Assembly (NCBI GenBank): GCA_963840855.1
Contig: CAWJBB010000023.1
Coordinates: forward strand, 1 to 26,561
Length of the DNA: 26,561 nt
From: an uncultured delta proteobacterium
Lineage (GTDB): Bacteria > Desulfobacterota > Binatia > UBA9968
Reading direction: 5' to 3'
The notes below the pieces were generated by a model. The model was not told where the DNA came from. It was given only the letters and a program-made list of their open reading frames with translations, and made no database searches. Of the stretch, positions 8,374-26,537 are shown in pieces (positions within the stretch are counted from its first letter, which is position 1; the number at the start of each line of letters is the position of its first letter). Position numbers and translations under genes: made by a program.

Positions 8374-8383
8374 TGCAACGATT

Positions 8384-10175: not shown

Positions 10176-10210
10176 CTAACATTAACCGGCGATTTTGGAG
10201 CGAAACTCAT

Positions 10211-10618: not shown

Positions 10619-10741
10619 GCAATCCTCGTGTGCATATAGCCAAAAGGATTTCGGAATAGCCGCGGGGCGGTAATCATCGATTCAGATGGAAAAGTTCAGC
10701 AAAACAAAATAGGCTCAATCAAAGGAGAATTAGGAGGCTAT

Positions 10742-11521
10742 ATGAAAAGATCTAGTGCGAATACTGGTTTATTATGGCACAGCGGATTGCTGGTTGCGGC
10801 ATTTCTTCTGTCCGGCTGTTTGGCAACCCGTGACTGGGTGCGCGGGCAGATGGACCCGTTGTCCGGCCGCGTGTCAGAAAATGAAAACCGGATTGGAAAA
10901 GCGGAAGGCCAGATCGGGCAACTGGGCAGCAGAATGACTGCCGCCGAGGGCAAGCTAGGCAGCGTCGAAGGCAAGCTCACCGGCGTCGAAGGTAAGGTGG
11001 GCGAAGTAGACGGGAAAGCGGAGCGGGCGCTGACAACCTTGGGCAACCTGAAGCTCGAACGCCGCTTGGTTGTTGATATGAAAGAGGGCGCCAACTTCGG
11101 ATTTAACTCCGCGGCACTGCCGCCCCAGGCGAGAAAGGAGATCGATGGTTTTCTAAGCGATCTCAAGGGAGATCTGGCGGGTGGAGAAAACGCGGTGTTT
11201 GTGGTGGCCGGCCACACTGATAACGCGGGTTCCGAAGACTTAAACTATGAACTCGGCAAGCGCAGGGCCGATGCGGTTAGCCGCTACCTGGTGACGCAAA
11301 AGAAAATGGACCCGCTACGTATCGTGACTGTCTCCTACGGTGAAAACTCTCCTGCCACCGATAATAATAGCCGTGACGGGCGGGCCAAGAACCGGCGTGT
11401 CGAAATCCTGGTCTACCGGGAAGCGATCAATTCTAACACCGCCGCGAATGCTGCGCCGCAACAACAGGAGCAGAAAGGCTCGCAGGTTTCCGATGGCAAA
11501 CAGATGACACGCAGTTATTGA
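10742..11521 (+). CDS. OmpA-family peptidoglycan-binding lipoprotein with heptad coiled-coil stalk
   Basis: Lipobox LSGC, (A/V)EGK heptad repeats, OmpA motifs GHTD..GS...N..LG.RRADAV and RAKNRRVEI; RBS AGGAGG. Confidence 0.92.
   Translation: MKRSSANTGLLWHSGLLVAAFLLSGCLATRDWVRGQMDPLSGRVSENENRIGKAEGQIGQLGSRMTAAEGKLGSVEGKLTGVEGKVGEVDGKAERALTTLGNLKLERRLVVDMKEGANFGFNSAALPPQARKEIDGFLSDLKGDLAGGENAVFVVAGHTDNAGSEDLNYELGKRRADAVSRYLVTQKKMDPLRIVTVSYGENSPATDNNSRDGRAKNRRVEILVYREAINSNTAANAAPQQQEQKGSQVSDGKQMTRSY
10943..11020 (+). repeat. Degenerate 21-bp coding tandem repeat (heptads AEGKLGS/VEGKLTG/VEGKVGE/VDGKA)
   Basis: GCCGAGGGCAAG, GTCGAAGGCAAG, GTCGAAGGTAAG and GTAGACGGGAAA at 21-bp period. Confidence 0.8.
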
Positions 11522-11549
11522 TAGGCGAAACGCGCTTCGGGGGCGTGGG

Positions 11550-11582
11550 AAAAGGCGGAGTCGTAAGACTCCGCCTTTTTTT
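11550..11582. terminator. Bidirectional intrinsic terminator
   Basis: AAAAGGCGGAGTC-GTAA-GACTCCGCCTTTTTTT. Confidence 0.9.
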
Positions 11583-11802
11583 ATTGGTATAAACGGTTGA
11601 TGTAGCCGCTGTCCTCAAGTTCGCGCAAGGAATGGGTATTCCATAACGCCAATGGGTTGAAACCGGCGATTTCAGGATTATGGCACGGCGAGCTATCGAC
11701 CGCCAGCCCGTGTCTTGCCCAAGCGCCTGATTTATCCGCGACGATCCAAAGCGGGGCGTGGGAATTGGAACGATAAATAACTCTCAAAGAATCATTTGCT
11801 AT
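11581..11802 (-). pseudogene. Internally deleted ABC-type (SsuA/NMT1-like) substrate-binding protein remnant
   Basis: An SBP-like N-terminus (LRVIYRSNSHAPLWIVADKSGAWARHGLAV) joins directly to an SBP-like C-terminus (LRELEDSGYINRLYQ). The RBS GGAAGGA sits 8 nt before an in-frame ATA, where ATG would be expected. Confidence 0.55.
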
Positions 11803-11896
11803 GTAGACTATCCTTCCCCCTATTCTGACATCGACCTTGGATTGACCGCCTGGGTCGAGACCTGAGTAAAATTTCCTGTGCGGGCAATTCCCGTGC

Positions 11897-12370
11897 TTAC
11901 TTAGTCAAACGCAGTCCAAACCATAGGGTGATTAAAGCAATGGGAACGATAAGCCAGTTCGTGCTCCTGAGCCGCCTCAGCACACCGTCAAGTTCTTGCT
12001 CAGTGACTGGATCGCCGCCTTCATGCCGTTTGACGAACCTGTGTCCGATGCCCATAGACTGATAGACGCTAAAAAGCACGACCAAGAAAGCAAGGGCAAG
12101 CTTGATGGCCAATTGGTAGCCTAGTTGTTGGACGAAGGTCTCACGGTAAGCTGCTTTGAGCTCGGTCAACTGGAACGCGCCGCTAAAGAGCAACACGCCG
12201 AGGGCGCCCACCTGGAGCGGATTGTAGAACTTTAGGCCGCGGGCTAAGAACCGCGCTTTGTCTTCGTGATCCTGGAGGGTCGCCACTGCCGGCAGTAGAA
12301 CAAACCAGAATCCGAGCACCGCTCCAAGATAGACGACCAGGGACAGGACGTGAAGCCAGGAGTTGAGCAT
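11897..12370 (-). CDS. Four-TM membrane protein, CopD/DUF4149-like
   Basis: WLHVLSLVVYLG start, four hydrophobic helices, LAIKLALAF motif. Confidence 0.7.
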   Translation of the reverse strand: MLNSWLHVLSLVVYLGAVLGFWFVLLPAVATLQDHEDKARFLARGLKFYNPLQVGALGVLLFSGAFQLTELKAAYRETFVQQLGYQLAIKLALAFLVVLFSVYQSMGIGHRFVKRHEGGDPVTEQELDGVLRRLRSTNWLIVPIALITLWFGLRLTK

Positions 12371-12382
12371 GGGAGCGAGAGA

Positions 12383-13197
12383 TCAGGCCCAGGTGAACCG
12401 CGCCCCTTTTTTGACTGGTCGCCCAGGCGCATCGTAGGTTTCGCCGATGGCGTCAAGTTGCTCGCGTATCAGCGCCAGTTCCTTTTGTTGGCGGGTTTCG
12501 AAGATCTGGGCTTCTTTGGCGCGCCGTTCGTTGAACTCAGCCAGCTCTCGCGCTCTGCGGTCAATGAATGCGTTTTGCTCCTGCTCCCATTTGGCGTAGG
12601 AGTCTTTCAAAAGGGTGCGGATTTGAAAGTTGAGGTTATCCCGCACCACTATCGATTTATAGCAGTGGGGACAGAAGATCACGTTGCCGATCATAAAGTT
12701 GCTCACAGGCTCGTCGTGGGTTTTGTCGCACTTGAGGCAACGGAGTGGAATCTTCCAGGAGTCGATTGGGGGAGCGGCACAAAATTGACTTCCGGTTCGG
12801 CGCAGGCGACCGCCGTCGCTACCGGAGCAGCGACGCTTGCCACCGTGCCCCGAGCGGAAGCCTGACTTGGAGCCGCTTTTGCCACTGCCTGCTCGCCGCT
12901 TTTTCCTTGCCCCTTGCGGAAACGCGACTCATAATTGTCGTCGAACTGGACTTCGGGGTGGACGACGCGGGCGCGCGCGATGAGCGCCTCTTCGCTTTCG
13001 ATGTTATTAGGGTCTGTAACGCAGCAGTCCACCGGACAGACGGCGGCGCAGGCTTCATAATCGTGAAAACCCACGCACTCGGTGCACAGCAGGGGATCGA
13101 TGACAAAAATGGTTTCGCCCTGCGAAATGGCGTTGTTGGGGCACTCCGGCTCGCAGGCGCCGCAGTTGATGCACTCGGTCGTAATCATGGTTGCCAT
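12383..13197 (-). CDS. YfhL-type 2[4Fe-4S] ferredoxin fused to a Zn-ribbon and coiled coil; frameshift at G5 run 12768-12772
   Basis: CINCGACEPECP and CTECVGFHDYEACAAVCPVDCC motifs; GGAGG RBS. Adding one base in the homopolymer reads ...PIDSWKIPLRCLKCDKTHDEPVSNFMIGNVIFCPHCYK... into ORF 12383-12706. Confidence 0.8.
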
Positions 13198-13253
13198 GAA
13201 CCCGATCCTCCTAAAGATTCCGATGGAAATTCGATTGGCCCAAAGACCAAAAT

Positions 13254-13282
13254 ATTCTAGATGAAAAAACCTGGGGTTGCAA
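13254..13282 (-). promoter_or_regulatory. Putative sigma-70 promoter of the ferredoxin gene
   Basis: Minus strand TTGCAA, 17 bp, TAGAAT. Confidence 0.55.
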
Positions 13283-13331
13283 ATCAACTTTGTCAAACCG
13301 GCGCGTGCGTTTCGCTTGAATGCTTTCAGAT

Positions 13332-13949
13332 ATGACCGCTGCTTCGAACCGGCAATTTAACGTTGGCACTTGCGGCTATTCTTACCCGGGCGGACCGCCG
13401 CGGGGTTGGAACGAGATATTTTATCCGATGGCGGTCGGGCGCCGCCTCAACGAACTGGAGTTTTACGCCTCGTATTTCAATTTGGTGGAGATCAATTCGA
13501 CATTTTACCGCCCGCCCAAGCCAACAATGACGCGCGCCTGGGTGTCGAGAACCCCGGACGATTTCAAATTCGCCGTGAAAGCTTGGCAGAAATTCACGCA
13601 CGCCAAACGGCTGGGCGGAGAATCCAGTGACCTTCGGCCCTGGGAACCGTTTGCGGCGAATGACGTGGAGTTGTTTTCCGGCGCGTTGATGCCATTGGCG
13701 GAAGTAGGCAAGCTTGCAGCGCTGCTGTTTCAGTACCCCGCTGGTTTCCATTTCGCCCCGGAAAATGTCGAGCGCATCGAGCGCACGCTGGAAGCCTTCG
13801 CTGAATTTCCCAAGGTCATTGAACTGCGGCACCGAAGCTGGAGCGATCATGAGTCTGAAACCCGCGCTATGTATGCGCCGCGGAGGGTGCCTCGGTCCAT
13901 GATCCAACGCTTTCCCGATCTCAGTGATTTTGTGGCGGTCAGCCTGTAA
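13332..13949 (+). pseudogene. DUF72 family protein, apparently internally truncated
   Basis: GTCGYSY, VEINSTFYRPP, FAVKAWQKFTH, LLFQYP and ELRHRSW are present, but the later YxRxHG and FNN motifs are absent. Confidence 0.7.
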
Positions 13950-14058
13950 ATCCATTCTTCGCCGATCTATTATCAATGCTGAGCTTCATTGATATAGTTC
14001 AGTTGCGCTCACTATTACCTATCTCAAAGCCAGCTAACATATTCTCGAGGAGTCTCGG

Positions 14059-15234
14059 ATGGCAAAGATTATCCATGACGAACAAATCCACCTGGAACCA
14101 GGACTCTTTTCCCAAGGTTTCGTCGCCGGGGAATTTGCCTTCGTGGCTCAAGACGCCCGGCTTTCGCACGGCGCTCTTACCGACGAAAGTACCCGTGATC
14201 AAGCGCGGCAAACCGTGGAAAATCTTGACGCCGCGCTCAAAACCGCAGATATGAATCTCACAGACGTCGTCAGCCTGATGGTCTATTTGCCTGACTACTC
14301 GGACGCTGGGCTGGTTTGCGAAGTCTTGGACGCGGCCTTCGGGAAAGATGGCGAAACCCGCCCCGCGGCGACGCTGGTCGGCATCGCGGGCCTCGACGGC
14401 AACTGTCGCGTGCGCATGGACGCGATCGCGACGGCGACTGAAGACCGCCAGTATTTTCACCTGCCCGAATTGCCGCTGGCTCGCGGCAGCCGATGCCACG
14501 GAGTACGCGCCGGAAATTTTGTCTTTTTGTCCGGTGTCGACGCCGCTGATGGTGATGGGAGAATTTCACCGCCGATTGCAATCCAGACGCAAACAACCGA
14601 AGTTCTCGGCCGAATCAACGATATCCTGGGCCGACAGGATTTGTCGCTGCGCGATCTCTGCCGCACGTTCATGTTTATGCCGAGCACGGATTATCGGCCG
14701 GGCTATGGCGAATCGCGCAGAGCCGTTTACGCGGGAATCTTTTCTGCGGACGAGTTTCCGCCCAACTCCGGAATTTATATTCGCGATTTGGGGAAAGATA
14801 TCCTGCTCCGCTCCGTCGCAATTGCCTATCGCGGCGAGAAACAGATCGTCGCTAGCCCCAAGGTAAGAAAATCTCCCGGCTCTTTTTCGCAGGCCGTGCG
14901 GGTCGGCGACTGGCTGTTGATTGCTGGTCAAGACGCGGTGGGATTCCAACGCGAGGTGCTGGCAGAGGGCGATCTGGCGGGACAAACGGAAATCACGCTG
15001 CGCCATGTGCAGCACATCGTCGAGGAAGCCGGGGGAACCTTGGACAACGTGGTGAAAACAACCGTGTATTTAACGGCTGGACAAAACCGCAACGAGTTTG
15101 CCGGCGCGTATTGCAACTTCTTCAAGCAACGTGCAACGACACTCCCAGCGGGTCTTACTCTCGAGGTCGTCGAGTTGTCTCCTGGTTGTCTTGTCGAGAT
15201 CGACGCCGTGGCTTACTTGGGACGCCATCGATAG
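14059..15234 (+). CDS. Rid (YjgF/YER057c/UK114) family protein with three tandem domains
   Basis: Three ~130-aa repeats: FSQGFVAGEFAFVAQ, HGVRAGNFVFLSG and FSQAVRVGDWLLIAGQ; ends in LVEIDAVA; RBS GAGGAG. Confidence 0.88.
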   Translation: MAKIIHDEQIHLEPGLFSQGFVAGEFAFVAQDARLSHGALTDESTRDQARQTVENLDAALKTADMNLTDVVSLMVYLPDYSDAGLVCEVLDAAFGKDGETRPAATLVGIAGLDGNCRVRMDAIATATEDRQYFHLPELPLARGSRCHGVRAGNFVFLSGVDAADGDGRISPPIAIQTQTTEVLGRINDILGRQDLSLRDLCRTFMFMPSTDYRPGYGESRRAVYAGIFSADEFPPNSGIYIRDLGKDILLRSVAIAYRGEKQIVASPKVRKSPGSFSQAVRVGDWLLIAGQDAVGFQREVLAEGDLAGQTEITLRHVQHIVEEAGGTLDNVVKTTVYLTAGQNRNEFAGAYCNFFKQRATTLPAGLTLEVVELSPGCLVEIDAVAYLGRHR

Positions 15235-15355
15235 ACAATCAGGACCTGATTGGATCGGAGGACGCAGGAGCGCCGCGCCGGGCGAACTGCCGCGGCGGCG
15301 TTGGATTGTCATGGCGGCAAACTCGCTTCGCCGCGGTTGCCGCCGCGGACTCATC

Positions 15356-16391
15356 CTAATTCCCCAGGACTTTCTTGAGACGCTCGATGATATCCGGCGG
15401 CTGGGTCGTTACGTCTTTAGCAAGTTTCTCCAATTCTTCGCCGCCGACCGGATCGAATTCGTAGTTTCGCTTCTTGACTTCGGTGCGGAACTGCTCGTCG
15501 CTCATGGTCTTTACAAACGCGTCCCTGAGAATCTTGAGACGGTCACGCCGGCATGCCCGGAGGGCCGAACATCGGCCGGCCCATGTCACCGGCGGCGAGA
15601 AGCACATTACTCAGACGCCTTCCCGACTCTGGAGTTTTGTGTCGATCCATGATTTCCGCAATGGTGGGAACATCCGGCAACCGTTCGTCCCTTTTGCTTC
15701 CCGTCTGAAACAGGTGTCGAACAAAATTCTTCTTGCGCCAGGTATGGTACGGCTCGCGGCCAAAAAACGCTTCGATGGTAAACGCGCGGCAGTGAATCTC
15801 GCCGCGCTCGACAGCGAGGTCAATGTCTGTTCCGCCCGGATAGCCGGTGACGATGGCGAACTTCGCGCCAACGGTGTCTTGCAATAATTTGGGCAGGTAA
15901 GAATCCGGCCCGGTGACTCCTGTAGCGCCGCATTTCGGCGGCTCTTTGGCCGTGCGGACATCTTCGATGGTTTTATACGGCGTGTCCGCGCGCATATACA
16001 TTTGGCTATCACCGCGCGCCGGCGAACCGATCCAGGTAAACTTCGCCCAGTCGAACTGAATCTCAGATCTGCCGAGCAACTGATTTAGATACAGCGAAGG
16101 GATAACTGAACCGATGATCGTCAAGCCATCCGGTTTTACATTGCTATAAAGATGATTCACCGCGACTACATGGCCCGCGCCGGGCATATTCTGCACGATG
16201 AAATCTGGGTTTCCCGGAATATGCTTACCCATGTACGTGACAATGAGCCGCCCCCACAGGTCGTAGAGGTTCCCCGGCGGCGTGCCAATGATGACCTTGA
16301 TGGTTTTTCCCTGGTAAAAAGGCGCCTGGGCATGTGCAGCCGGCAAACAGGCCAGCAGACAAAGAATAAACGGCACGGAGAGTTTTTTCAT
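15356..16391 (-). CDS. Tripartite tricarboxylate transporter substrate-binding protein (TctC/Bug); frameshift near 15548
   Basis: Signal peptide, FYQGKTI, VQNMPGAG, PDGLTI and GYPGGTDIDLAVERGE. The C-terminus (DRLKILRDAF...) continues in the adjacent frame to 15356. Confidence 0.88.
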
Positions 16392-16518
16392 GTTTACACC
16401 TCGGATTGAGCTGAGCCCGCGCGCGTCGCAGCATCGGGCCGTGAATCGCCGCTAACGTAGTCCAACTCGCAGATGAGCGTCAAGTGAAATAGCCAGCGCC
16501 GAAAAGATGCGGGGATCT

Positions 16519-17424
16519 TTACAGCGCCCCTACGTAATTGACCATGCGCTCGCGCATCCCGGCGTCGGGAATAATCCCCATGCCTCCTTGCATATTGTCG
16601 ATAAGGTGCGCGATTTTACTCGTCGCCGGTATCGCGCAGGTTACAGCCGCGTGCGAAATGACAAATTTGAGAAAGAATTGAGCCCAGGTCGTGCAGCCGA
16701 TGTCCTTGGCCCAGGAAGGCAATGGCTTGCCGCGCACCTTGCTGAAAAGCGGGCCGCCGGCGAATGGCCGATTAACCAGCACTGCGATCCGTCTGTCGGT
16801 GGCGAGAGGCAAGAGACGCCGCTCCGCTTCACGCTCGGCGACCGAGTAATTGAGCTGGACGAAATCGAGCTCTTCTGTTTCTAATATGCGCGCCAAATCG
16901 TCGTAGGCGCTGGCGGTGTAGTGAGTAACGCCGATATAGCGAACTTTCCCTTTCTCTTTCCACTGGCGCAGCGTGGCCAGATGGGTGCGCCAGTCAACCA
17001 GATTGTGCACCTGCATCAGGTCCATGCGCTGGGCACGCAATCGACGGAACGACTCTTCCATCTGCCGGATACCGGCTTCCCGCCCGCTGGTCCAGACCTT
17101 GGTGGCGATAAAGAGATGCTTTCTAAGTTTAAGGTCGCCGGCAAGATCGCCGGCGACGCTTTCCGAACTACCATACATCGGCGAGGAATCGATGACGCTG
17201 CCGCCGAGCCGCGCGAATTCGCCGAGGACCTCTTTCAGCGGCGCCCGCGCCGCCGCATCGGCGCCCACATCAAAAGTCTGCCATGTCCCAAGGCCAATCA
17301 CCGGCAGCGATTCTCCCGAACGCGGGATCGGCCGACGGATAATCGACGCGGCCATTGAGTAACCTCCAGTCAGCGCAACGGTGCCGGCGCCGAGCGCCAG
17401 GCGAAACAACTGCCGACGCGACAT
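16519..17424 (-). CDS. Aldo/keto reductase with possible Tat signal peptide
   Basis: IGLGTW, IDSSPMYG, ATKV, DLMQVHNL and IPATS motifs; N-terminal SRRQLF. Alternative start at 17355. Confidence 0.9.
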   Translation of the reverse strand: MSRRQLFRLALGAGTVALTGGYSMAASIIRRPIPRSGESLPVIGLGTWQTFDVGADAAARAPLKEVLGEFARLGGSVIDSSPMYGSSESVAGDLAGDLKLRKHLFIATKVWTSGREAGIRQMEESFRRLRAQRMDLMQVHNLVDWRTHLATLRQWKEKGKVRYIGVTHYTASAYDDLARILETEELDFVQLNYSVAEREAERRLLPLATDRRIAVLVNRPFAGGPLFSKVRGKPLPSWAKDIGCTTWAQFFLKFVISHAAVTCAIPATSKIAHLIDNMQGGMGIIPDAGMRERMVNYVGAL

Positions 17425-17536
17425 GCCTCTTGTGCGGATTAAGATCGCCATTCGCATCAATCTTGGTTACAATCTACGCCCTCGGCACCCCCGGCGGCAA
17501 GCGCCGAGTGTTCGGCATCGGCCCATGGCCCAACCG

Positions 17537-17562
17537 GGAACCATGCAGCGTCTTGGGTCGTT
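17537..17562 (+). promoter_or_regulatory. Putative ECF sigma factor promoter upstream of msrA
   Basis: GGAAC-N17-CGTT about 40 nt upstream of the msrA ATG. Confidence 0.5.
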
Positions 17563-17602
17563 ATGTTCTCATCGAAGCTCGCAAAACGCAGGGAGAAAAA
17601 CA

Positions 17603-18220
17603 ATGAGAATCAAAAGACTTATGAATCTATGTCTGGCGCTCGGGTGGATAACAATCTCGCAGTCGGGCACGCTTCATGCGGCAAGCGCCAACGCGGAAAC
17701 GGCCAAAGCGACTTTTGCTGGCGGGTGCTTTTGGTGCATGGAGCCGCCGTTCGATAAGCTCGACGGCGTGTTTGCGACAATTTCCGGTTATGCGGGCGGC
17801 AAGAAGAAAAATCCGACCTATGAAGAGGTTTCTGCGGGCACCACGGGACACACCGAAGTCGTACAGGTGACCTACGATCCGAATAAGATCAGCTACTCCA
17901 AGTTACTCGAAGTTTTCTGGCATAATATCGACCCGCTGACCTCCAATCGGCAGTTTTGTGACGCCGGCAGTCAATACCGCTCAGCGATCTTTGTCCACGA
18001 TCAGAATCAAAAACGCCTGGCTGAAGAATCCAAAGCAACCATTGCCAAGCGATTCAAAACACCCATCGTCACGGAAATTGTTCCGTTCACGGAATTTTTT
18101 CCAGCGGAGGACTACCATCAGGATTATTACAAGAAAAATCCTGTTCGCTATCAGATTTACCGCTACGGTTGCGGCCGCGACCAGCGGCTCGAGGAGCTGT
18201 GGGGCGCGGCGCCAAAGTGA
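17603..18220 (+). CDS. msrA: Peptide-methionine (S)-S-oxide reductase with signal peptide
   Basis: GGCFWCME active site, GHTEVV and AEDYHQDYY motifs; N-terminal signal-like segment; GGAG RBS. Confidence 0.95.
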   Translation: MRIKRLMNLCLALGWITISQSGTLHAASANAETAKATFAGGCFWCMEPPFDKLDGVFATISGYAGGKKKNPTYEEVSAGTTGHTEVVQVTYDPNKISYSKLLEVFWHNIDPLTSNRQFCDAGSQYRSAIFVHDQNQKRLAEESKATIAKRFKTPIVTEIVPFTEFFPAEDYHQDYYKKNPVRYQIYRYGCGRDQRLEELWGAAPK

Positions 18221-18256
18221 TCCAGCTCGAAAAATCGCTGGGCAAGAAAATATGCG

Positions 18257-18667
18257 CTATGTGTGCGAGCTTCGTTGGCGCGCGCCGTCGATGCTCCAGA
18301 TGCCCGCCCCTTGGGTCGCCACGTAGAGAAAGACAAAACAAAATAGCACTGCCGGCTCGCCTTTGTTTTCGAGCGGCCAAAAGCTTGTGGGAAAATGGGC
18401 CATGAAGTAGGCAACCGCCATCTGCCCGCTGGCGATGAACGCCGCGTATCCGGCAAGGAACCCGATCACGATCAAAAGCCCCGTGATAATTTCGATTATG
18501 CCAGCAACGCCGAGGAGCGAGCTTAGCAACACCGCGGTTCCTTTGCCGTCGATACCGCCGAACCAACCGAAAACCTTCTGCGCGCCGTGGCAAACGAAGA
18601 GCAAACCGACGACGATACGCATCAACGCGTAGGCGTAGGGACTGGAGCTATCAAGCCATTTCTCCAC
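18257..18667 (-). CDS. DoxX family membrane protein
   Basis: RIVVGLLFVCHGAQKVFG, MAVAYFMAH and GAGIWSID motifs. Confidence 0.92.
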   Translation of the reverse strand: MEKWLDSSSPYAYALMRIVVGLLFVCHGAQKVFGWFGGIDGKGTAVLLSSLLGVAGIIEIITGLLIVIGFLAGYAAFIASGQMAVAYFMAHFPTSFWPLENKGEPAVLFCFVFLYVATQGAGIWSIDGARQRSSHT

Positions 18668-18718
18668 AGTGAGTTACTTTCCTTTCTTGTTTTATTCCCG
18701 AGGGCGTCCGTCCGATTC

Positions 18719-18763
18719 CGAGACGTTTTGGACGACTTGAACGATTTGAACTGCTTGAACGCC
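18719..18763 (+). repeat. 9-bp GAAC-core tandem array A
   Basis: cgagacgtt ttggacgac ttgaacgat ttgaactgc ttgaacgcc, abutting the stop codon at 18763. Confidence 0.85.
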
Positions 18764-19780
18764 TATTCAATCCTAGTCGTTTGCAAGTGCGTCCCGGTTC
18801 GCCCGGGAATATAGGCCGACTTGGCGCCTGCGCCGCCGGCGACGACGATCCAGATATCTTCCGGCCGATCAACAGCGCCGATTTCCCGCGCATCATTCTT
18901 AAACCATGACGGCCGCCGTTTGGACAATAGTTTTAGATTATCATCGGAGATTTTCTCATAAGGGACACGAGCCATCGTGAAGAGGTCCTGGCGGATGTCC
19001 TGTTTTGAATAGCCGTTTGTCGATAATATCACGGCATGCTCCGGGCAAAGGATTAGCATAACTTCGGTGGAAGTAACGCCACTGGTCATTCCGCCGATCA
19101 TGGTTAAGGCGAATGTTTTCAACAGCCCTTTGGCGTTTTGGCTAGCCATATCGACGGCACTATTAACACCGCTGCAGCCGAACATGACTTATCGCGTCGG
19201 CCTCGCGGTTAAATCCGCGTTCGACGTGGAGTGACTCCCAAGGATTCTCTTCCTCGTTTTCTCCGATGCAGAACGTATACTTCGCCGGTTGGCCGACGGT
19301 TGATTTGTCGTACAGACCCGGCACAGCTCCACCGATGTTGGTCATTACGAACCTGATCGCTCGCCCGATGGTCGCATTGGCGCGCCAGCCCTGGCCGAGC
19401 ACGTTGGCGCCGCAGTTGATCTCCAACGTCTTCCGGCACGGACCGTTGACGATCACGAGTGGCGCGACATTTCCCGTGGTCGTCTGCACGCCATCGAGAT
19501 TGAATCCGGGCTGAAGCATCCCCGTCACCCCCGCGAGCACTAGCGGAAAATACTCCGGCAGACAACCGGCCATCACCGCATTTGCGGCGATTTTCTCCAC
19601 GGTAGCGATACCATTCAAAGGCGGCATCGTGCCAAGCACATGATCTCTTTTCAGTCCGCACGCTCCGATCATTGCGCTGACCGCAGCCCGCGTCGGCGGC
19701 AGAACCGGTAAACCATCCGACCAACCCTGTGCCATAACGAAATAAAACAGTGCCGCCGGATCACTTGGCACGGTGATCAA
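18763..19780 (-). CDS. Conserved UGSC-associated protein (DGLPVxPPT type); frameshift near 19185
   Basis: GWSDGLPVLPPT, ATVEKIAANAVMAGCLPEY, RANATIGRA and GENEEENPW motifs; continues in ORF 18763-19185 (IVVAGGAG). TTG start with GGGAGGT 7 nt upstream. Confidence 0.8.
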
Positions 19781-20369
19781 TTCCCCGACCTCCCGGTGAT
19801 GCGACGCCTCGGCGCCTTCACTGCGGATTCAACGCTGCCGTTTTTCCGCGTTAACCCAGCAACAATCGACTCGACGGCGCTTTCCGCCATTTTTTCAGCG
19901 CGTCAGTGGGAATCGTCCCCACCGGATGCGGCACCTCAACCAGCGGCAGGCCGCCCATGCCGCGCGTCGCACTTTCAGTCTTCGCCAGCGTCATAAATTC
20001 GTCCGTGACGATTGTAGCTGTGGGAATACCTGCCTGTTCTAGCTGCACCGAGTCGTGGACACTCCACGACGTGCAGGAGCCTCAATCAGCAAAGGCATTG
20101 ATGACCACGTCGCAGTGCTCGGCCAACTCTTTAAGGCAGTCCGCTTCGATGCGCGTCATCTTCCGCTTCGAGACCAGCTCCATGCCCTCGTACCGCTTCT
20201 TAAGCAGCGCCCCGACATGATCGAGAAATTTGTCGGCATTGGGCTTATTGTTGTCGAGCAACCCGATGCGTACGCCGCCAAGATTATCGTGTTTCCTCGG
20301 CGCAAGCCGGATCCGCTTGGAGGCACGGACTCCGGTCGGATTCAAAATTTCGATCATTTCGTCATTCAT
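19777..20369 (-). CDS. UGSC-family selenoprotein (in-frame UGA at 20082-20084); probable frameshift at T6 run 19890-19895
   Basis: ORFs 20082-20405 and 19851-20048 are in frame: NAFAD-UGA-GSCTSWSVHDSVQLEQAGIPT; also LLDNNKPNADKFL; GGAG RBS. As written the ORF stops at 19851; one extra A extends it to a TTGA overlap with the next gene. Confidence 0.88.
20043..20076 (-). promoter_or_regulatory. Bacterial SECIS-like hairpin
   Basis: mRNA reads UGA GGCUC CUGCAC-GUCGUGGA-GUG-UCCACGAC-UCG-GUGCAG: a 6+8-bp stem whose GU-starting apical loop lies 19 nt after the UGA. Confidence 0.75.
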
Positions 20370-20388
20370 GTTGTCGGCTCCGATATCT

Positions 20389-20424
20389 TTAGACGTTTTG
20401 AACATTTTGAACGATTGGAACGCG
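20389..20424 (+). repeat. 9-bp GAAC-core tandem array B
   Basis: ttagacgtt ttgaacatt ttgaacgat tggaacgcg. Confidence 0.85.
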
Positions 20425-20448
20425 TTTGATCCAGGCCACGTGACTGAC

Positions 20449-22083
20449 TTATATTCCTTCGATGGGACAGATTACGTCCAACAGTACTGGCTTGCGAAGT
20501 GCCAACGCCCGTTTGATCGCAGGCAGCAGCGCTTTGGGTTGGACCACTCTTTCCGATTCGATGCCATAGGAACCGGCGAGGGCGCAGAGATCGGGCAGGT
20601 GAAGGTCTGTTCCGATGACCCTGCCGCCGTAGTGTTTGATCTGGTCCCGCTTCATGTTCCCGTAGGCGTCGTTGCGAACTACGATGATCGTAATCGGCAG
20701 CTTGAATGCCGCGGCCGTGGCTAGTTCCTGGCTTTCAAGCATGAAAGAGCCGTCGCCGCTCACGCACGCCACGGGCTGAGCTGGGAAGGCGAGACTTAAA
20801 CCAATCGAGGTTGAAAGACCGAAACCGATGGCGCGCATTTCCCCCGAGTGATACGCATAAGATGGCGCGACAAAGCGCCTGATGAGTTCCGCCGTGCCTC
20901 CTGCACCGACAACGACCGCATCTTCGCCGATGGCTTCTTTCAACGCCCGGTAAACATGCCACTGATCGATCGGGCCGTCAACGTCGTAAGTATGAGTTTG
21001 AATTTTCTCGCGCCAGCTGGTTTTTTCTCCATCGAGCCTAACGACGCGAGACGGATCTCTTTTTTCGGCGCCAGCTTTTTTTAACCGCGCGATGAGCCCT
21101 ATGAGAACGGCTTTTGCGTCGCCGCACACCGACAGATGAGTCGGGTATATTTTGCCGAGCTCCCGCGGATCGGCGTCAATTTGAATGATTTTCGCGCCCG
21201 CCTGAATCACTTTGTCGCCAAAGCCAAGCGTGAGACCCTCACTGAAAGTCACTCCCACCGCCAAAATCAAATCCGACTCGATACTGAATGCGTTGGCAAA
21301 GGGAAATGCGCCGAAACCCAGCACCCCCAGCGAAAGTGAATGATCTTCGGAAATCAAGCCTTTGTGCGATGGCGAGGTGCCAAAGGGTATGGAGAGAAGC
21401 TCCGCCAGCTCGCGCAGTTCTTGTTCAGCCCTCGACCAGTAGACGCCTCCGCCGGCTATAATTATGGGAAAAGATGCTTTTTGCAGCTCTTCCGCTGCTC
21501 GGTCCAAGACAGCCCGGTCAGGCTCCACAGTCGGCGCAACGGTGCCCAGCCACCCAGGTTCGGGAGCTTCGATTTCTTCCTCCTGAATGTCACGTGGAAT
21601 GCCGACGTAAACCGGCCCCATTCTTCCCGTTGTTGCTTGGCATAGCGCCTGGCGCAAAATCTCGACGGCGTCATCTTCACTCTCAAGAGTGACGCTCATT
21701 TTCGTGATCGGCGCAAAAATCTCGCGCTGCGGTATTTCATGCCACGACGACGCGCCTTTTCTTCCGTGACGGCGTGATACATCGGCGGCAAGCACAATCA
21801 CGGGGATCGATTCTTTGTACGCGTAAGCGATTCCCGTCAGAAGGTTGGTAACGCCCGCGCCGGCAGAGGCCGTGCAGACACCAAGCGTCCTCGTTCCCTT
21901 GGCATAGGCGGCGGCCATGTAAGCGGCGGAAAGCTCGTGCATGACCGGTACGAACCGGATATTAGGCTCGGAATAGAGAGCGTCGGTGATAGGAAAAATC
22001 GAATGGCCGGTCAGGCCGAAGAGGTATGGGGCTCCAGCCTCTTTAAGGAAATTAGCGATCAGACGCGCCACCGAAATCTTCAC
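20449..22083 (-). CDS. Thiamine pyrophosphate-dependent enzyme (acetolactate synthase/Xsc superfamily)
   Basis: MHELSAAYMA (catalytic Glu), GPVYVGIPRDI, IQIDADP and TPP motif GDGSF...RNDAYG. Confidence 0.92.
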   Translation of the reverse strand: MKISVARLIANFLKEAGAPYLFGLTGHSIFPITDALYSEPNIRFVPVMHELSAAYMAAAYAKGTRTLGVCTASAGAGVTNLLTGIAYAYKESIPVIVLAADVSRRHGRKGASSWHEIPQREIFAPITKMSVTLESEDDAVEILRQALCQATTGRMGPVYVGIPRDIQEEEIEAPEPGWLGTVAPTVEPDRAVLDRAAEELQKASFPIIIAGGGVYWSRAEQELRELAELLSIPFGTSPSHKGLISEDHSLSLGVLGFGAFPFANAFSIESDLILAVGVTFSEGLTLGFGDKVIQAGAKIIQIDADPRELGKIYPTHLSVCGDAKAVLIGLIARLKKAGAEKRDPSRVVRLDGEKTSWREKIQTHTYDVDGPIDQWHVYRALKEAIGEDAVVVGAGGTAELIRRFVAPSYAYHSGEMRAIGFGLSTSIGLSLAFPAQPVACVSGDGSFMLESQELATAAAFKLPITIIVVRNDAYGNMKRDQIKHYGGRVIGTDLHLPDLCALAGSYGIESERVVQPKALLPAIKRALALRKPVLLDVICPIEGI

Positions 22084-22087
22084 GGCA

Positions 22088-23191
22088 TTACTTCTTCTGC
22101 CAAATGTCTAAGACCAATCGCCGGACTGATTCGAGATCGCTATAGCCGACATCATCGCTGAGAGTATACTTGCCTCCCGGTTTGATGCGCGCGTGGAGCG
22201 GCACATCGTCCTTCGGGATATCGATCCTGAGAGAGTTTCTGCCGCCCTGGACAAATTTTTGATAGGCGATTTGGCCTTCTCGTGAGAGGAACCAGTTGAT
22301 AAAAACCTTCGCTGCATTGGGGTTAGGGGCTCGATTGATCAAAGCGATGTTGCCGCCGCCGGAGCCCACCAGGCCGCCTTCCTTGAATTTGTCGGTTTCG
22401 AAAGCGTTCACCGGCAAGCCTTGCTTTCTCGCATCCCACAACCGTATTCGATCCGTGTTTTGCAAAGCCGACATCGCATATTTACCTTGGGCGACCCAGT
22501 CCAAGAGCTGTCGCATATCACGGCTTACGCCGAGATCCATTTCGGTCAGAAATCGCCGGACAAATTCAGAGCCCAGTTCCTTGTTGTGATACAAAAACTG
22601 CAACGGCTCTTGCGTTCCACCCGTCAGTGGTTCAGCAACGACCATTTTCCCCTTCCACTTAGGATTGAGAAAATCCCAATAGGATTTGAATTCCTGGGGA
22701 TTTACTAGCGTGGTGTTGTAGTGGAAATAATAAAGTGGGGTGCCAGCGAAGGATAAGATATATTTGTCCTCGTCGTCGCCGTAGACATGCTTGCCCTGCC
22801 ACCATTTCGACTCGTCCAAAACCTCTGGGAGAATCAGCGCAGGTTTGATGGGTTCGAGGAGCCCGGCTTTGAGCAGGCCGGACTGGGCGGAACCGACTCC
22901 GCCGATAAGGATGTCTGCGAGGTACTTGCCTGCCCGCCGTTCAGACATAATTCTTGTCACCCGTTCCGACCCTCGGACGGTCACTTCGACCAGCTTGATG
23001 TCGGGAAACTTTTTTTGAAACTCCTGGAAAACAAGCTCCTGTCCCGGAAAGGTGTAAAGGACGAGTTTCCCTTCTTGTTTGCCCGCGCTGAGGACTTTCT
23101 CCCATTCTTCGCGCCGATCGCTCGCAGCCATGATCGGCAAGGCAATTGTGAGAAGCAAAAAATAAGCAAGTGTGCTGAAAAGCAACTTCAT
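22088..23191 (-). CDS. Extracellular solute-binding protein (Fe3+/AfuA-like ABC SBP fold)
   Basis: Signal peptide, GKQEGKLVLY, FQKKFPDIK, YNTTLV, LNPKWKGK and APNPNAAKVFINWFLSREGQ; GGAG RBS before ATG 23191. Confidence 0.9.
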   Translation of the reverse strand: MKLLFSTLAYFLLLTIALPIMAASDRREEWEKVLSAGKQEGKLVLYTFPGQELVFQEFQKKFPDIKLVEVTVRGSERVTRIMSERRAGKYLADILIGGVGSAQSGLLKAGLLEPIKPALILPEVLDESKWWQGKHVYGDDEDKYILSFAGTPLYYFHYNTTLVNPQEFKSYWDFLNPKWKGKMVVAEPLTGGTQEPLQFLYHNKELGSEFVRRFLTEMDLGVSRDMRQLLDWVAQGKYAMSALQNTDRIRLWDARKQGLPVNAFETDKFKEGGLVGSGGGNIALINRAPNPNAAKVFINWFLSREGQIAYQKFVQGGRNSLRIDIPKDDVPLHARIKPGGKYTLSDDVGYSDLESVRRLVLDIWQKK

Positions 23192-23275
23192 CGCACGCAT
23201 CTCCATGAGAGCTGATAGCTCATTGTCCGCTCGTAGACGCGGATGTGGTTCGAGCTGTGCGAACCGCACAACGTG

Positions 23276-23317
23276 TGGAACTTGAACGGCTTGAACGTTT
23301 GGAACTACTGGAACGGT
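23276..23317 (+). repeat. 9-bp GAAC-core tandem array C
   Basis: tggaac ttgaacggc ttgaacgtt tggaactac tggaacggt. Confidence 0.85.
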
Positions 23318-23339
23318 TTTGCAGAGTTTACGCGCCTCG

Positions 23340-23735
23340 CTACGTCAAAAGCTTGAATCCGTATTGCTGAAAGTGCGGATCGCAACCGAATGCGACGCTA
23401 ATCCCGATGCGCGCCATGACAGCGAAACTCGTCGCGTCAGTGTAAGAGAAAGACTTGTCCGCGTATTTGCGAATGATATCTTTGGCAACCTCTTCGTCCC
23501 GCGCCTGTACCGCTTCAATCTGCCACGTTTGACCCAAGAGCCAGCGACGGGCCAGCGCCGCACCCATTCGAGACAATAGCAAAGCATGAGACTCGGCGAC
23601 AATGAAATTCGTCAGCAGCGGGGCTAGGCCGCGCCCCGGCATTGAGCGAAGAGTAGCCACCGCTTTTCGATGAAAGGCGTCATTGTGGTCGACAAGAGCA
23701 TAAATGGCGCTGGTATCCACTAAGACTTGCGCCAT
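23340..23735 (-). CDS. vapC: PIN-domain toxin (VapC family)
   Basis: VLVDTSA, IVAES, SYTDATSFAVM and D.HF.QYGF PIN motifs; overlaps the antitoxin gene by 16 nt. Confidence 0.92.
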   Translation of the reverse strand: MAQVLVDTSAIYALVDHNDAFHRKAVATLRSMPGRGLAPLLTNFIVAESHALLLSRMGAALARRWLLGQTWQIEAVQARDEEVAKDIIRKYADKSFSYTDATSFAVMARIGISVAFGCDPHFQQYGFKLLT

Positions 23736-23989
23736 CTCTTGCGCTCACCTTGGGCGAGGTAATAGTCGTGACGGGCGGCAACGTCACGCTTGCCGCTCGA
23801 ACCCTGGCCGATCATATTCCAAATGGGATCTTCGCCGCTTAGGGCCTTGGCGCGGGACACTTTGTGTAGCGTTAAATACTCTCCGTCGCTCTCTACCACC
23901 AGATAGTCGTCTTTAGTAATCCCTAGCTTGCGGCGAAGATTGATGGGGAGCGTTATTTGCCCCTTTTCCGTGACCTTTACGATCGCCAT
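23720..23989 (-). CDS. vapB: AbrB/MazE/SpoVT-family antitoxin
   Basis: KVTEKGQITLPINLRRKLGI AbrB motif; C-terminal DVAARHDYYL; GAGGA RBS. Confidence 0.9.
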   Translation of the reverse strand: MAIVKVTEKGQITLPINLRRKLGITKDDYLVVESDGEYLTLHKVSRAKALSGEDPIWNMIGQGSSGKRDVAARHDYYLAQGERKRWRKS

Positions 23990-24003
23990 GTTTAAGTCCT
24001 CAA

Positions 24004-24049
24004 GTAAGGAATTCTTACCTAATGTATACCTAAGCTCATCTTGAATCAA
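24004..24049 (-). promoter_or_regulatory. vapBC promoter with palindromic operator
   Basis: TTGATT-17 bp-TACATT on the minus strand, followed by the inverted repeat GTAAG-N5-CTTAC (24004-24018) over the expected start site. Confidence 0.65.
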
Positions 24050-24076
24050 GACAAACGTTTCGATGATGGGATCACC

Positions 24077-24153
24077 TTGAACATTGAACAGCGCGCCGCT
24101 GCGCGCGCTTGAACGACTCGAACTACTGGAACGATCGGAACGGCTCGAACCGT
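24077..24153 (+). repeat. GAAC-core tandem array D with an internal GC hairpin
   Basis: ttgaaca ttgaaca [gcgcgc-cgct-gcgcgc]gc ttgaacgac tcgaactac tggaacgat cggaacggc tcgaaccgt. Confidence 0.85.
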
Positions 24154-24154
24154 T

Positions 24155-24859
24155 TTACAGCGTCATCGCTATCCGAAACCCATAATCCGCGTACTTGAAA
24201 GCGGGCGGCAAAGAGCTGCGCGCGGCGCAGCGGCTGAATTTGATCCGGTGGCGCCATGAGCCGCCGCGCGAGGCACGGCGCTGGCCGCTGGCGGGGCCTT
24301 GCGGATTTTTCTCCGGCGCATAGCGATAATAGTGATAATCAAAGTAATCGCTGCACCACTCGTGCACGCCTTCGCTCATGTCGTAGACGCCGAAGCCGTT
24401 GGGCTCGCCCACGCCGACCTGCTGCGGGCCGCCGGTTTCGCCGTCAAATCCCGGATACGGTCTTTCCCACGGCGGCTCGTCTCCCCACGGATAGAGCGCG
24501 CCCTCGCGCCGGCCGCGCGCGGCGCGCTCCCATTCCGCCTCCGTGGGCAATCGAAAGGCTTGCCCCAGCCGTTCGCTCAACCACTGGCAGTACGCCGTCG
24601 CGTCATCCCAAGTGACTCCGACCACCGGCTTCTCGGGGTGGGCAAACATCGGCTCGGTCCAAAACGGCGGCGCTGGCGCGGCCTTGTCTTCAACGTATAT
24701 TTTGTATTCCCGGTTGGTGACGGGAAATTTGCCGATGGCGAAAGCATCGATACAGACGCGGTGCACGGGTTGTTCGTTTTCCTGTCCCTGATCGCTTCCC
24801 ATCAGAAAGCTTCCCGCGGGAATGATAACCATCTCGGGATTCACAACGGAGCGAATCAT
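24155..24859 (-). CDS. Formylglycine-generating-enzyme (SUMF1/EgtB/PvdO) family domain protein
   Basis: IPAGSFLMGS, E.PVHRV, RLPTEAEWERAARG, NGFGVYDMSEGVHEW, RGGSW and GFR motifs. Confidence 0.9.
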   Translation of the reverse strand: MIRSVVNPEMVIIPAGSFLMGSDQGQENEQPVHRVCIDAFAIGKFPVTNREYKIYVEDKAAPAPPFWTEPMFAHPEKPVVGVTWDDATAYCQWLSERLGQAFRLPTEAEWERAARGRREGALYPWGDEPPWERPYPGFDGETGGPQQVGVGEPNGFGVYDMSEGVHEWCSDYFDYHYYRYAPEKNPQGPASGQRRASRGGSWRHRIKFSRCAARSSLPPAFKYADYGFRIAMTL

Positions 24860-25021
24860 ACGGGGAGATTAATGACTGCCGTATTGACGTTGTCAAGACA
24901 GTCCCGGATTTCCGCGCCCGCGGCAATGACCAGATCGGACTCCCGGCTTGTTGAAGAACTTTGATCCGTCTCGCTTTAGACTTTGTTTTCAGGCTGCTCA
25001 AAAGATTCCGAGAGAATCTTA

Positions 25022-25070
25022 CGAAACGATTTGAACGTTTTGAACGACTGGAACGTAGGCGCGAAGCGCC
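25022..25070 (+). repeat. 9-bp GAAC-core tandem array E with adjacent GGCGC-GAA-GCGCC hairpin
   Basis: cgaaacgat ttgaacgtt ttgaacgac tggaacgta. Confidence 0.85.
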
Positions 25071-25078
25071 GCTATTAT

Positions 25079-26537
25079 TTAGTTTTCCCAGCCGCCGCCT
25101 AACGCCTTGTATAGCGCGACGAGATTCGTCGACATCGTCGCCTCGCTCTGGGCGAGATCGTTCTCGGCGGCGTTAAGTGCGCGTTGGGAATCCAGCACGT
25201 TGAGAAAGTCGATGAGCCCGTTTTTGTAAAGGTCGTCAGCCAGGGCCAGGGCACGGCGGTTGGCAACCACTGCATCCGTCAAAGACCGATAGCGCGTCTG
25301 TTCCTTGACGTAGCTCACCAGCGCGTTTTCCACGTCTTCAAAGGCCGTAAGCACGGTTTTTTCGTACTGCGTCAAGGCCTGCTCTTGCCGCGCCGTGCGC
25401 ACTTCGATGTTGGCGCGGATTCTTCCGGCGTCGAAGACAGGCCAGCGAATGGTCGGGCCGATGGACCAGAAGCGGCTTGGCGCTGAAAACCAATCGCTGG
25501 CGGAAATGCTGGTTACGCCAAAGGCGCCGGATAGGGAGAACTTCGGATAAAGATCGGCAGTCGCAACGCCTATCTCGGCATTGGCCGCGGCGAGCAGGCG
25601 CTCCGCGCGCCGGATATCGGGACGCCGCCTTAGAAGTTCCGACGGCAAGCCGACGTGAGCTTGGGGAGGAAGCGCGGGAATTGGCGCATCCGCCGATAAC
25701 TCAGTCCACAGGGCGCCGGGCTGAAATCCAAGGAGCACGTCGAGGCGGTGCGCGGCTTGTTTCGCCAGAGCTTCTAACGCGGGAATCTCCGCCGCCGTCG
25801 TATTGACCTGTGCCTCCGCCTGAGCGACTTGAAGATCGCTCGCCATCCCGGCTTGAAAACGCACTCGAACGATTTCCAGCGAGTCTTGTTGCGCCTTGAG
25901 ATTGTTTCCGGCCACGGCCAAACGGCGTTGAAAACCGCGCAGGTCTATGTAGTTTCTCGCGATGTCGCCAAGCAGTGTCACCAAGACATCGCGGTGGTCC
26001 TCTATCGTCGCCTCGACCGTGGCCTCGGCAGACTCGACGCTGCGCCGCACGCCGCCAAGACATCGATCTCCCAGCTCGAGTCAAATCCGGACCGGAAAAG
26101 ATCCTGTCCATTGTTACTGCCGCGAAAGAAAGGCGAGCCGCCGCTCCCTTGCGACGAGGGCGCAATCGCGTTCTCGCTCGTGCGGCTGCGGCTGTAAGAG
26201 CCGCTCACATCGACGCTCTGGCCGATGCCTCCCTCTCGGCGACTCGCCGCAATGCCCGTGCTTCGCGGATGCGCGCCTCGGCCGGCGCGCAAATCTAAAC
26301 TGGAACCCGCCGCTCTATTTGCCCAGCCTCTGTCAACACCGGATCGTTGAACTCTTCCCACCAGCGCGCCAGACTGGGCCTGGCGGGTGTCGATGCTCCC
26401 ATAACGCGCTTCGCTCCACATGGCGGGGACCGGAGTGTCGGGACGGCGATAATCGGGACCGACGGTGTACCTGCTGTCAGTAGCGCGAGGACGGCGACGC
26501 CGGCGCGCGACGCTGCCGTTAGACGGATGCGTTTCAT
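25079..26537 (-). CDS. Efflux outer-membrane lipoprotein (OprM/NodT/TolC family); multiple frameshifts in the 5' third
   Basis: LPSELLRRRPDIRRAE, AFEDVENAL and LYKALGGGW motifs. N-terminal pieces (TVGPDY, WWEEFNDPVL, GFDSSWEIDV) are scattered over different frames. Confidence 0.88.

Follow-up and report, generated by a model that had tools for sequence, protein, structure and literature searches.

The subject of this report is a set of five short tandem-repeat arrays in the window, that is, the whole stretch of 26,561 nucleotides (nt) that was analysed. It is one contig (C23) of a 7.10-Mb, 93-contig metagenome-assembled genome (MAG) of Candidatus Binatia, G000, which is 94% complete and 8% contaminated. 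As read off the sequence, each array repeats a core, T(T/G)GAAC on the plus strand, at 9-nt spacing. All five have GTTC on the minus strand, and their outer cores are partly degenerate. Arrays of the same kind are found at hundreds of other loci in the genome, some of them as inverted arms around genes of the PF05635/TIGR02436 family (S23p, "23S rRNA intervening-sequence protein", here IVP). The features of the array-bearing part of the window, with cores numbered on the plus strand and open reading frame shortened to ORF, are as follows.

18257..26050, minus strand: co-oriented array-bearing gene run comprising DoxX, a 140-amino-acid ORF, a 205-amino-acid ORF, UGSC selenoprotein, TPP enzyme, SBP, VapC (PIN), VapB (MazE/AbrB), FGE-sulfatase and OEP
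18728..18760, minus strand: array 1, four cores at 9-nt spacing, three GTTCAA and one GTCCAA on the minus strand (18728, which is a degenerate TTGGAC, 18737, 18746 and 18755); its end at 18760 is 2 nt from the stop, 18763-18765, of the 140-amino-acid ORF (18763..19185)
20389..20431, minus strand: array 2, four 9-nt-spaced cores within 20389-20421 (20389, a degenerate TTAGAC, 20398, 20407 and 20416) and one degenerate core, TTGATC, at 20426; it lies in the 77-nt gap from the TPP-enzyme stop (20449-20451) to the UGSC start (about 20371), roughly 17 nt ahead of that start
23276..23314, minus strand: array 3, four 9-nt-spaced cores (23282, 23291, 23300 and 23309) and one at offset 6 (23276), 25 nt from the PIN/VapC stop at 23340-23342
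24109..24150, minus strand: array 4, five cores at 9-nt spacing, 4 nt from the FGE-sulfatase stop at 24155-24157
24077..24109, minus strand: 3' extension of array 4, two 7-nt-spaced cores (24077-24089) and a GC hairpin (24090-24109) in the same orientation
25022..25054, minus strand: array 5, 9-nt spacing, three good cores (25031, 25040 and 25049) and a degenerate one at 25022, 24 nt from the stop (25079-25081) of the OEP (OprM-like) gene
25058..25070, minus strand: GC hairpin GGCGCGAAGCGCC, between array 5 and the OEP stop

A preliminary description of this DNA had reported five co-oriented GAAC arrays with a 9-bp repeat, each just past a minus-strand stop, and this is borne out by our reading and by two automatic scans of the contig, which recover precisely five arrays. 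The distances past the stops are 2, 17–27, 25, 4 and 24 nt for arrays 1 to 5, and, as had also been claimed for the first 18 kb, positions 1 to 18700 are array-free in the scans. The four to seven copies given there have to be lowered: four cores are counted in each array, with a fifth in array 4 and, at offset 6, in array 3. The statement that every sizeable gap holds an array is nearly right, the exception being a gap of about 70 nt at 19781-19850 in the ORF calls. The gene names agree with Pfam, which supports DoxX, UGSC (with TGA read as selenocysteine, Sec), TPP enzyme, SBP, PIN, MazE/AbrB, FGE-sulfatase and OEP; the 140-amino-acid ORF, named there the UGSC partner, had no match in the Pfam search. 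An Rfam search of 8.5 kb with E up to 1 matched no family, the one hit, to Acido-Lenti-1 at the GC hairpin, being below threshold. In the mRNA sense, the segment after array 5 (25000-25021, minus strand) has an AU-rich hairpin, AAGAUUCUCUCGGAAUCUU, and a U-run, a terminator-like arrangement that is below the GC threshold of our terminator scan.

The GTTC arrays as four-core modules

Period-9 arrays with at least three exact GTTC cores number 290 in the genome and 0.33 in shuffles, and a tolerant scan gave 387 arrays against 15 for a reversed-motif control; these counts rule out a chance origin. When spacings of 6 to 10 nt are allowed, the genome has 705 GTTC arrays. The steps between cores are mostly of 7 nt (917) or 9 nt (809), those of 8 nt being rare (110), and the two spacings seldom mix, as 282 arrays are purely of period 7, 272 purely of period 9, and 15 are mixtures. 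The unit is GTTC[A/C]A[A/G]NC (GTTCMARNC), in which the G and the two Ts are conserved at 98–99% and positions 5, 7 and 8 are variable.

The number of cores has a sharp upper limit at either period. Runs of two, three, four and five exact cores number 226, 93, 165 and 4 for period 7, and 188, 113, 138 and 6 for period 9. Neighbouring units are identical in 24 cases where 116 are expected for period 7 (500 permutations, minimum 87), and in 1 case where 25 are expected for period 9 (minimum 12). The arrays are modules, with four cores, two spacings and non-identical spacers, and not slippage products. Simple-sequence repeats generated by slippage, as at contingency loci, would account for the short tandem units and for the variation in unit number between orthologues. 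However, the strong avoidance of identical neighbours, the stop at four cores, the constancy of unit number in related strains, and the presence of one core at hundreds of loci and in 20 of 21 genera of the family all speak against such an origin, which we find scarcely credible; the preliminary description had likewise argued that recent slippage was not involved.

Metagenome DNA contigs from two runs span arrays 3 and 4 with indels of 1–2 nt only, array 3 having a 2-nt deletion. The arrays are largely intergenic, the midpoints of 37 of the 661 arrays of period 7 or 9 falling inside a called gene, and they are distributed over the contigs with mild clumping (variance/mean 1.38). The gene calls used here and below come from our own codon-usage scoring of ORFs and are crude; called starts in particular are unreliable, since TTG occurs within the arrays. 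Other short-unit repeat families are also present in the genome.

Several known kinds of short motif were considered for the unit and rejected. For an uptake signal, the 2.3-fold enrichment of intergenic GTTCAA that is left after masking of the arrays is too small. None of the ECF-type promoter, Rho-loading site and RNase E site, judged by consensus motifs, fits both orientations. With the tRNA T-loop, or TruB-type, motif GUUCNANNC, positions 1–4, 6 and 9 of GTTCMARNC coincide, but 26% of the units have C at the tRNA purine position and the last two positions are missing in the 7-nt form.

Polarity, convergent pairs and the IVP genes

The arrays have a consistent polarity with respect to the nearest ORF. 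Of 310 strictly defined single arrays, or solos, 232 have their 5' (GTTC-sense) end closer to an ORF than their 3' end (p = 7e-19), and the rule holds in symmetric gaps, both convergent (49/61) and divergent (38/51). The polarity is not one of stops or of mRNA sense: in tandem-gene gaps, 134 solos face a stop and 119 face a start, and a further 62 solos lie in divergent gaps. That the arrays keep strictly to stop codons and to the sense strand of the mRNA is, then, a local trait of this window. The genome-wide check of strand and stop-codon bias proposed in the preliminary description thus confirms that the system is non-random and oriented, while the tie to stops and mRNA sense does not extend beyond the window.

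The basis of the polarity rule is the geometry of convergent pairs, since decayed convergent pairs predict it. Neighbouring arrays no more than 150 nt apart are arranged GTTC-then-GAAC in 155 cases, in the same sense in 29, and GAAC-then-GTTC in 1; across a gene, at 400–3000 nt, the pattern is inverted (59 vs 12). The two arms of a pair agree in period, with 88 pairs of 7-7, 45 of 9-9 and 7 mixed 7/9. The loops are short, 13 of 75 being perfect head-to-head junctions, and several loop motifs recur. Inverted cores (one or more, within 120 nt) are found on the 3' side in 153 of 346 arrays scored as solos and on the 5' side in 21, so that many solos are decayed pairs.

The pairs bring in the first of the functional alternatives, that the arrays, and above all the pairs, are REP-like 3'-end elements, which would end or stabilise mRNAs through exonuclease-blocking hairpins or factor-dependent termination. 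The predicted folding energies of the pairs are -20 to -60 kcal/mol, pairs are enriched in convergent gaps (34/624, against 14/722 for divergent gaps), the median stop-to-array distance is 12–21 nt for arrays whose 5' side faces a stop, and Xanthomonas transcripts are reported to start or stop at similar arrays more often than at controls (PMC4692102). Against this, 119 of the 253 tandem-gap solos face a start and 62 lie in divergent gaps, array 2 of the window sits just ahead of a start within its 77-nt gap, and the window arrays lack both a significant fold and a U-tract terminator: a search for GC-rich hairpins followed by a U-run found no minus-strand intrinsic terminator at any of the five. 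We consider a 3'-end function improbable for the system as a whole, and the termination role suggested for the window arrays in the preliminary description is not supported.

That description had also pointed to genes for four-helix-bundle proteins of the TIGR02436 type as possible companions of the arrays, and this link proved to be real. The genome has seven profile matches to PF05635 and two to GxxExxY. At five of the IVP loci and at both GxxExxY genes, inspection by eye showed inverted tandem-repeat arms on the two sides of the gene, built on various units. One IVP copy, at C21:60108-60368, has a GTTC and a GAAC arm and an internal TAG. Among the loci of 20 IVP genes in relatives, six have a GTTC arm on the left and a GAAC arm on the right, and the rest have other units. 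The seven GTTC-armed IVP proteins have a mean identity to one another of 0.73 (minimum 0.67) and to the 17 others of 0.37 (maximum 0.57), and the nearest neighbour of an IVP mostly shares its arm type or has a similar unit. From this we predicted that IVPs at least 70% identical to the protein of locus L092, a lineage that we call GTTC-type, would have the same arms. The prediction held at five of six new loci, the sixth being a complex pseudogene. In total, GTTC/GAAC arms are found at 12 of the 13 genes for GTTC-type IVPs, which represent at least five genera, and at 0 of 14 other IVP genes. All the IVP loci examined lie between protein-coding genes, none in helix 25 or 45 of 23S rRNA.

The intact cassette of L092 gives the predicted form of the complete element. 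When its RNA is folded, the arms pair, with at least 25 contiguous pairs, in both the minimum-free-energy and the centroid structure, enclosing the ORF and reaching into its ribosome-binding site (z = -3.0; none of 100 shuffles equals it). Among PDB entries, the closest to the GTTC-type IVP is 2GSC (E 1.3e-13), the five-chain structure of XCC0516 from X. campestris. In the published table of Xanthomonas arrays, a four-unit GGGAATC-type array is placed 6 nt after bccP (XCC0517), overlapping the annotated start of XCC0516, and the table gives none for the other side (PMC4692102, supplementary file 2, row 27).

Other observations on IVP loci concern different units. The G000 genes of the IVP or GxxExxY kind at C19:25217, C12:2467, C58:104745, C40:72297, C55:24641 and C83:58808 each lie, by eye, between inverted arms of their own unit; the units include GGCGTGA, GAGATCA, a CGTG-type unit, CACGAAGG and GCGCAAAG, and they also form tens of gene-less arrays. 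At C40:72414-72529, an insert of some 105 nt, with a GAAC array and a recurring motif, GAACGGAGCGCAGCG, splits an IVP gene, about 7 codons of which are lost; this supports the view that arrays can enter sequence already in place. At C50:159499-160275 of G000, 741 nt with no convincing ORF lie between a GTTC and a GAAC array; an RNA gene and a decayed cassette are both conceivable here.

Distribution among genomes and orthologous sites

The pattern of four cores at 9 nt recurs through the family of the window, which consists of uncultured soil bacteria: 23 of the 24 other genomes have it, from 20 of 21 genera; the count includes two unpublished genomes, G009 and G015, without which it becomes 21 of 22. 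In two sister families, 1 of 16 genomes has the pattern, and that match is of another kind. With a stricter form of the 9-nt pattern, 0 of the 299 genomes sampled from other families of the phylum gave a match. Within the family, one match was obtained in G010, at 92% completeness, and none in G022, at 100%. The 7-nt form, present in 12 of 24 family genomes, is mostly limited to the genus of the window, with counts of 163 in G000, 152 in G001, 41 in G002 and 44 in G004.

Comparison with the congeneric genome G002 shows arrays 1 and 4 at the same sites (L011 9020-9046 and 12470-12505, respectively), with conserved cores and changed spacers. Both array 4 (24077-24150) and the G002 orthologue of array 1 (L011 8960-9046) are composites in which a 9-nt array, a GC-rich hairpin and a 7-nt array follow one another in one orientation. 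Over a wider range of relatives, an array follows the end of the FGE orthologue at 9 of 80 loci in a scan and at 11 of 31 printed loci by eye; unit numbers and spacers vary across genera, and the downstream DNA is unrelated. The same order, an FGE gene and then a GTTC array, is seen on two contigs titled Verrucomicrobiia and Chloroflexota (L025 and L046), which may be mis-binned Binatia.

Gene-scale differences between G000 and G002 bear on the proposal, made in the preliminary description, that the arrays are recombination joints delimiting gene cassettes; such joints, integron-like or other, would be the sites of gene-block exchange. In the array-bearing 8 kb there are three such differences, each at an array gap: G002 has 4.7 kb extra at array 1, it has 1.45 kb in place of the 3.5 kb that runs from array 2 to within vapB, homology stopping at 20381/20382, and it has 2.0 kb extra at array 5. 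Likewise, at the second IVP cassette of G002, called IVP2, the GTTC array is kept in both genomes and the DNA beyond it differs; the array also accompanies the FGE gene, with different DNA downstream, and the genome encodes an integron integrase. On the other hand, the sample is small, insertions can fall only in gaps, and the array-free 18.7 kb has two gene-scale differences of its own, one at 13291-13939, where the contig switches, and one of 2.1 kb extra at 16490-16532. The arrays are spread through the genome with the mild clumping noted above, and the order GTTC...GAAC is opposite to the R''...R' of the attC consensus. A general role as joints is very unlikely in our judgement; the coincidence of three out of three differences with array gaps stands as suggestive only. 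The arrays as attC sites proper were rejected, as intI (C1:45987-46880) is followed by 13 kb free of GTTC arrays, with no co-oriented cassette array. This integrase gene is full-length by its match (442 bits, above the cut-off), and a C-terminal integrase fragment is found at C21:55442-55882, some 4 kb away from that contig's GTTC-armed IVP locus. In the replaced segment (window 20382-23885, L011 10669-12118), the TPP enzyme, the solute-binding protein, vapC and part of vapB are swapped, a 73-nt vapB-like stretch alone being common to both.

Two further approaches to mobility and transcript ends were abandoned. In the mapping of metagenome and metatranscriptome contigs, the joints between arrays were repeat artefacts, because arrays are repeats, at which contigs pile up and break; contigs from RNA libraries show no transcript ends. 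A clustering of array flanks by similarity (165/520, against 74/520 in controls) was inflated by degenerate partner arms that had not been masked and is not used as evidence of mobility.

Interpretation and comparison with known systems

We propose that the five window arrays are solo arms, that is, half-elements, of a family-specific repeat system whose complete form is a convergent pair around an IVP gene, a reading that we hold to be somewhat the better bet. The basic module would be four GTTCAA cores 9 nt apart, the 7-nt spacing being a probably younger, mostly genus-level variant. A complete element would have its loop between a GTTC arm and a GAAC arm, and in the full-length form this loop would hold the PF05635/TIGR02436 gene with its ribosome-binding site. 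This architecture would be that of an rRNA intervening sequence, relocated between protein genes. In the transcript, the arms are predicted by modelling to pair as a stem of about 25–35 bp around the gene, and, by analogy to rRNA intervening sequences, RNase III would be expected to act on this stem. Gene-less pairs (at least 155 loci) may be internally deleted cassettes, and solo arms (about 200–350 loci) half-remnants that would be unable to fold alone; both would be old, and both are placed against ORF boundaries. The suggestion in the preliminary description that the arrays are a processing signal fits the paired form, by the same analogy with intervening sequences excised by RNase III.

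The persistence of the solos calls for one more element. Conserved cores, the four-unit quantum and non-identical neighbours are all retained in solos, and decay does not explain them; this suggests that the cores of solo arms are still recognised by something, for which the cognate IVP protein is a candidate. As to direction, the arrays may descend from IVP cassettes, or IVP genes may enter hairpins that were already there. A broader proposal, which we offer tentatively and to which we would assign about one chance in four, is that S23p/IVP four-helix-bundle proteins, which are pentamers in solved relatives, are sequence-specific partners of their own four-unit arms, each lineage recognising its unit and driving or maintaining its spread in intergenic DNA, on the model of RAYTs and REPINs.

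Several results weigh against the half-element reading. At the window itself, the contig has neither a partner arm nor an IVP gene for the five arrays, as judged by the array scans and a PF05635 search of C23, and as RNA the arrays fold no better than shuffles (z of -0.2, -0.2, +0.3, -1.8 and -1.8). The GTTC-type IVP is present in 11 of 25 genomes of the family (f1), and the GTTC-type copy of G000 itself is broken by its TAG stop. Four array-rich MAGs that are 93–99% complete (G005, G013, G019 and G020) have no GTTC-type IVP at 70% identity or above, and PF05635 genes of any lineage range more widely than the GTTC arrays, being found in 23 of 24 genomes of f1, 5 of 5 of f2 and 0 of 11 of f3; there is therefore no clean co-occurrence. 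As to mobility, 137 of the 149 four-core 9-mer arrays are distinct, and thus give no sign of recent transposition; no transposase or target-site duplication was seen with the arrays; and at IVP2, neither a clean empty site nor the edge of an insertion nor a duplicated target could be read from G002 against G000. At the variable positions, complementarity between the two arms of a pair is no higher than between arms from different loci (0.714 vs 0.762, sd 0.015, for period 7; 0.66 vs 0.691, sd 0.017, for period 9), and there is therefore no sign of selection for a perfect stem or of recent palindromic duplication. Finally, the cores stay conserved in solos and at orthologous sites, which pure decay would not predict.

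A different explanation is that the arrays are host-selected tetravalent cis-elements, acting in RNA or DNA. They would be bound by an oligomeric, lineage-specific protein and so mark the boundaries of genes for insulation, processing or stability, IVP cassettes merely using or entering them. With such sites, one would understand the four-core quantum at either period, cores conserved at 98–99% beside variable spacers, and a copy number kept stable by the avoidance of identical neighbours, and likewise the motif's conservation throughout the family, the recurrence of arrays at the same FGE 3' end across genera in front of unrelated DNA, and the small indels that are the sole differences in arrays 3 and 4 of related strains. 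Yet the IVP is the sole candidate protein found, two discrete spacings of 7 and 9 nt are hard to reconcile with one rigid DNA binder, the orientation to transcription is near-random (134:119), and G010 and G022, with one match and none, are awkward for a conserved host function. We put the chance of this explanation at about one in five.

The closest known counterparts are the intergenic heptamer arrays of Xanthomonas (GGGAATC) and Nostoc (GGGGA(C/T)T) described by Rehm et al. 2015 (PMC4692102). The Xanthomonas arrays favour four units and hug an ORF on their 5' side. The GTTCAA arrays are similar to both in having one lineage-specific unit at hundreds of intergenic loci, a preference for four units, a 5' side that hugs the ORF whatever its orientation, some tandem inverted copies, and genetic stability; in the Xanthomonas case, one array abuts XCC0516, a homologue of S23p/IVP. 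They differ in the unit, which is GTTCAA followed by one or three variable bases, in having non-identical spacers and in having two discrete periods. GTTCMARNC has no G-tract, and a G-quadruplex is therefore not possible, unlike in the Xanthomonas/Nostoc type. The link to an IVP lineage extends here over 27 loci, whereas Rehm et al. report that their arrays are generally not tied to mobile elements (PMC4692102). The GTTCAA arrays are a previously undescribed variant of a known but unexplained class of repeats, the Xanthomonas GGGAATC type.

The second counterpart is the intervening sequences of 23S rRNA, stem-loops with an S23p ORF that are excised by RNase III (PMC4990558). In Coxiella, three tandem heptamers and one degenerate unit lie upstream of the S23p ORF, the terminal stem measures 28 bp, and the cut by RNase III falls at the first repeat. 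The Coxiella and Leptospira elements share with the complete element here a PF05635 gene in a stem-loop, short tandem repeats upstream of it, and a ribosome-binding site in or next to the stem (PMC4990558). Unlike them, the present element lies between protein genes, it has hundreds of gene-less and half copies, its arms are only partly complementary, and RNase III processing is proposed for it by analogy.

Three other systems are more distant. Like REP/REPIN-RAYT, the GTTC system has dispersed intergenic inverted doublets, many singlets, and one protein partner flanked by the same repeat. Unlike REP/REPIN, its units are not palindromes, single arrays folding no better than shuffles, and the partner is a four-helix-bundle protein of about 105 residues where the RAYT is an HUH transposase. 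The genome has ten hits to PF01797. The TAACTGA direct repeats of Beggiatoaceae, cyanobacteria and Bacteroidetes, reported as 169 sets of two to six copies for which protein binding was proposed (MacGregor 2015, PMC4679880), are likewise copies of one short unit, a heptamer, in intergenic DNA; unlike the GTTC arrays, they reportedly lie mostly just upstream of starts and almost never form inverted pairs. As with integron attC sites, the element stands at the 3' end of a gene and travels with it; unlike attC, it forms no arrays by the integrase, has the other order of cores, and is dispersed rather than gathered in a single co-oriented cassette array.

The dispersed four-unit arrays of Xanthomonas, cyanobacteria and sulfur bacteria were reported without an explanation. 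What is new here is that a specific repeat unit is tied to a specific IVP lineage in one family of genomes (12/13 vs 0/14), that the arrays appear as engineered-looking modules, and that the published Xanthomonas table can be seen to set an array beside a crystallised S23p homologue. No literature linking four-unit arrays to the IVP family was found, subscription journals being outside the coverage of the search. The resulting hypothesis, of a protein, its cognate four-unit arm and RNase III-type processing, is testable. If true, the cognate-IVP reading would cover rRNA intervening sequences, the Xanthomonas/Nostoc heptamer arrays and the 700 GTTCAA arrays together, and would give a role to the TIGR02436 family. 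We know of no function for that family so far outside diversity-generating retroelements, and, to our knowledge, the S23p/IVP family and the rRNA intervening sequences have for decades had no known function or origin.

A separate feature of the window is the UGSC-family gene at 19851-20405 (minus strand). It has an in-frame TGA at about 20070, in the motif F-A-D-U-G-S-C, and when TGA is read as Sec, the product matches Pfam UGSC at 2e-48.

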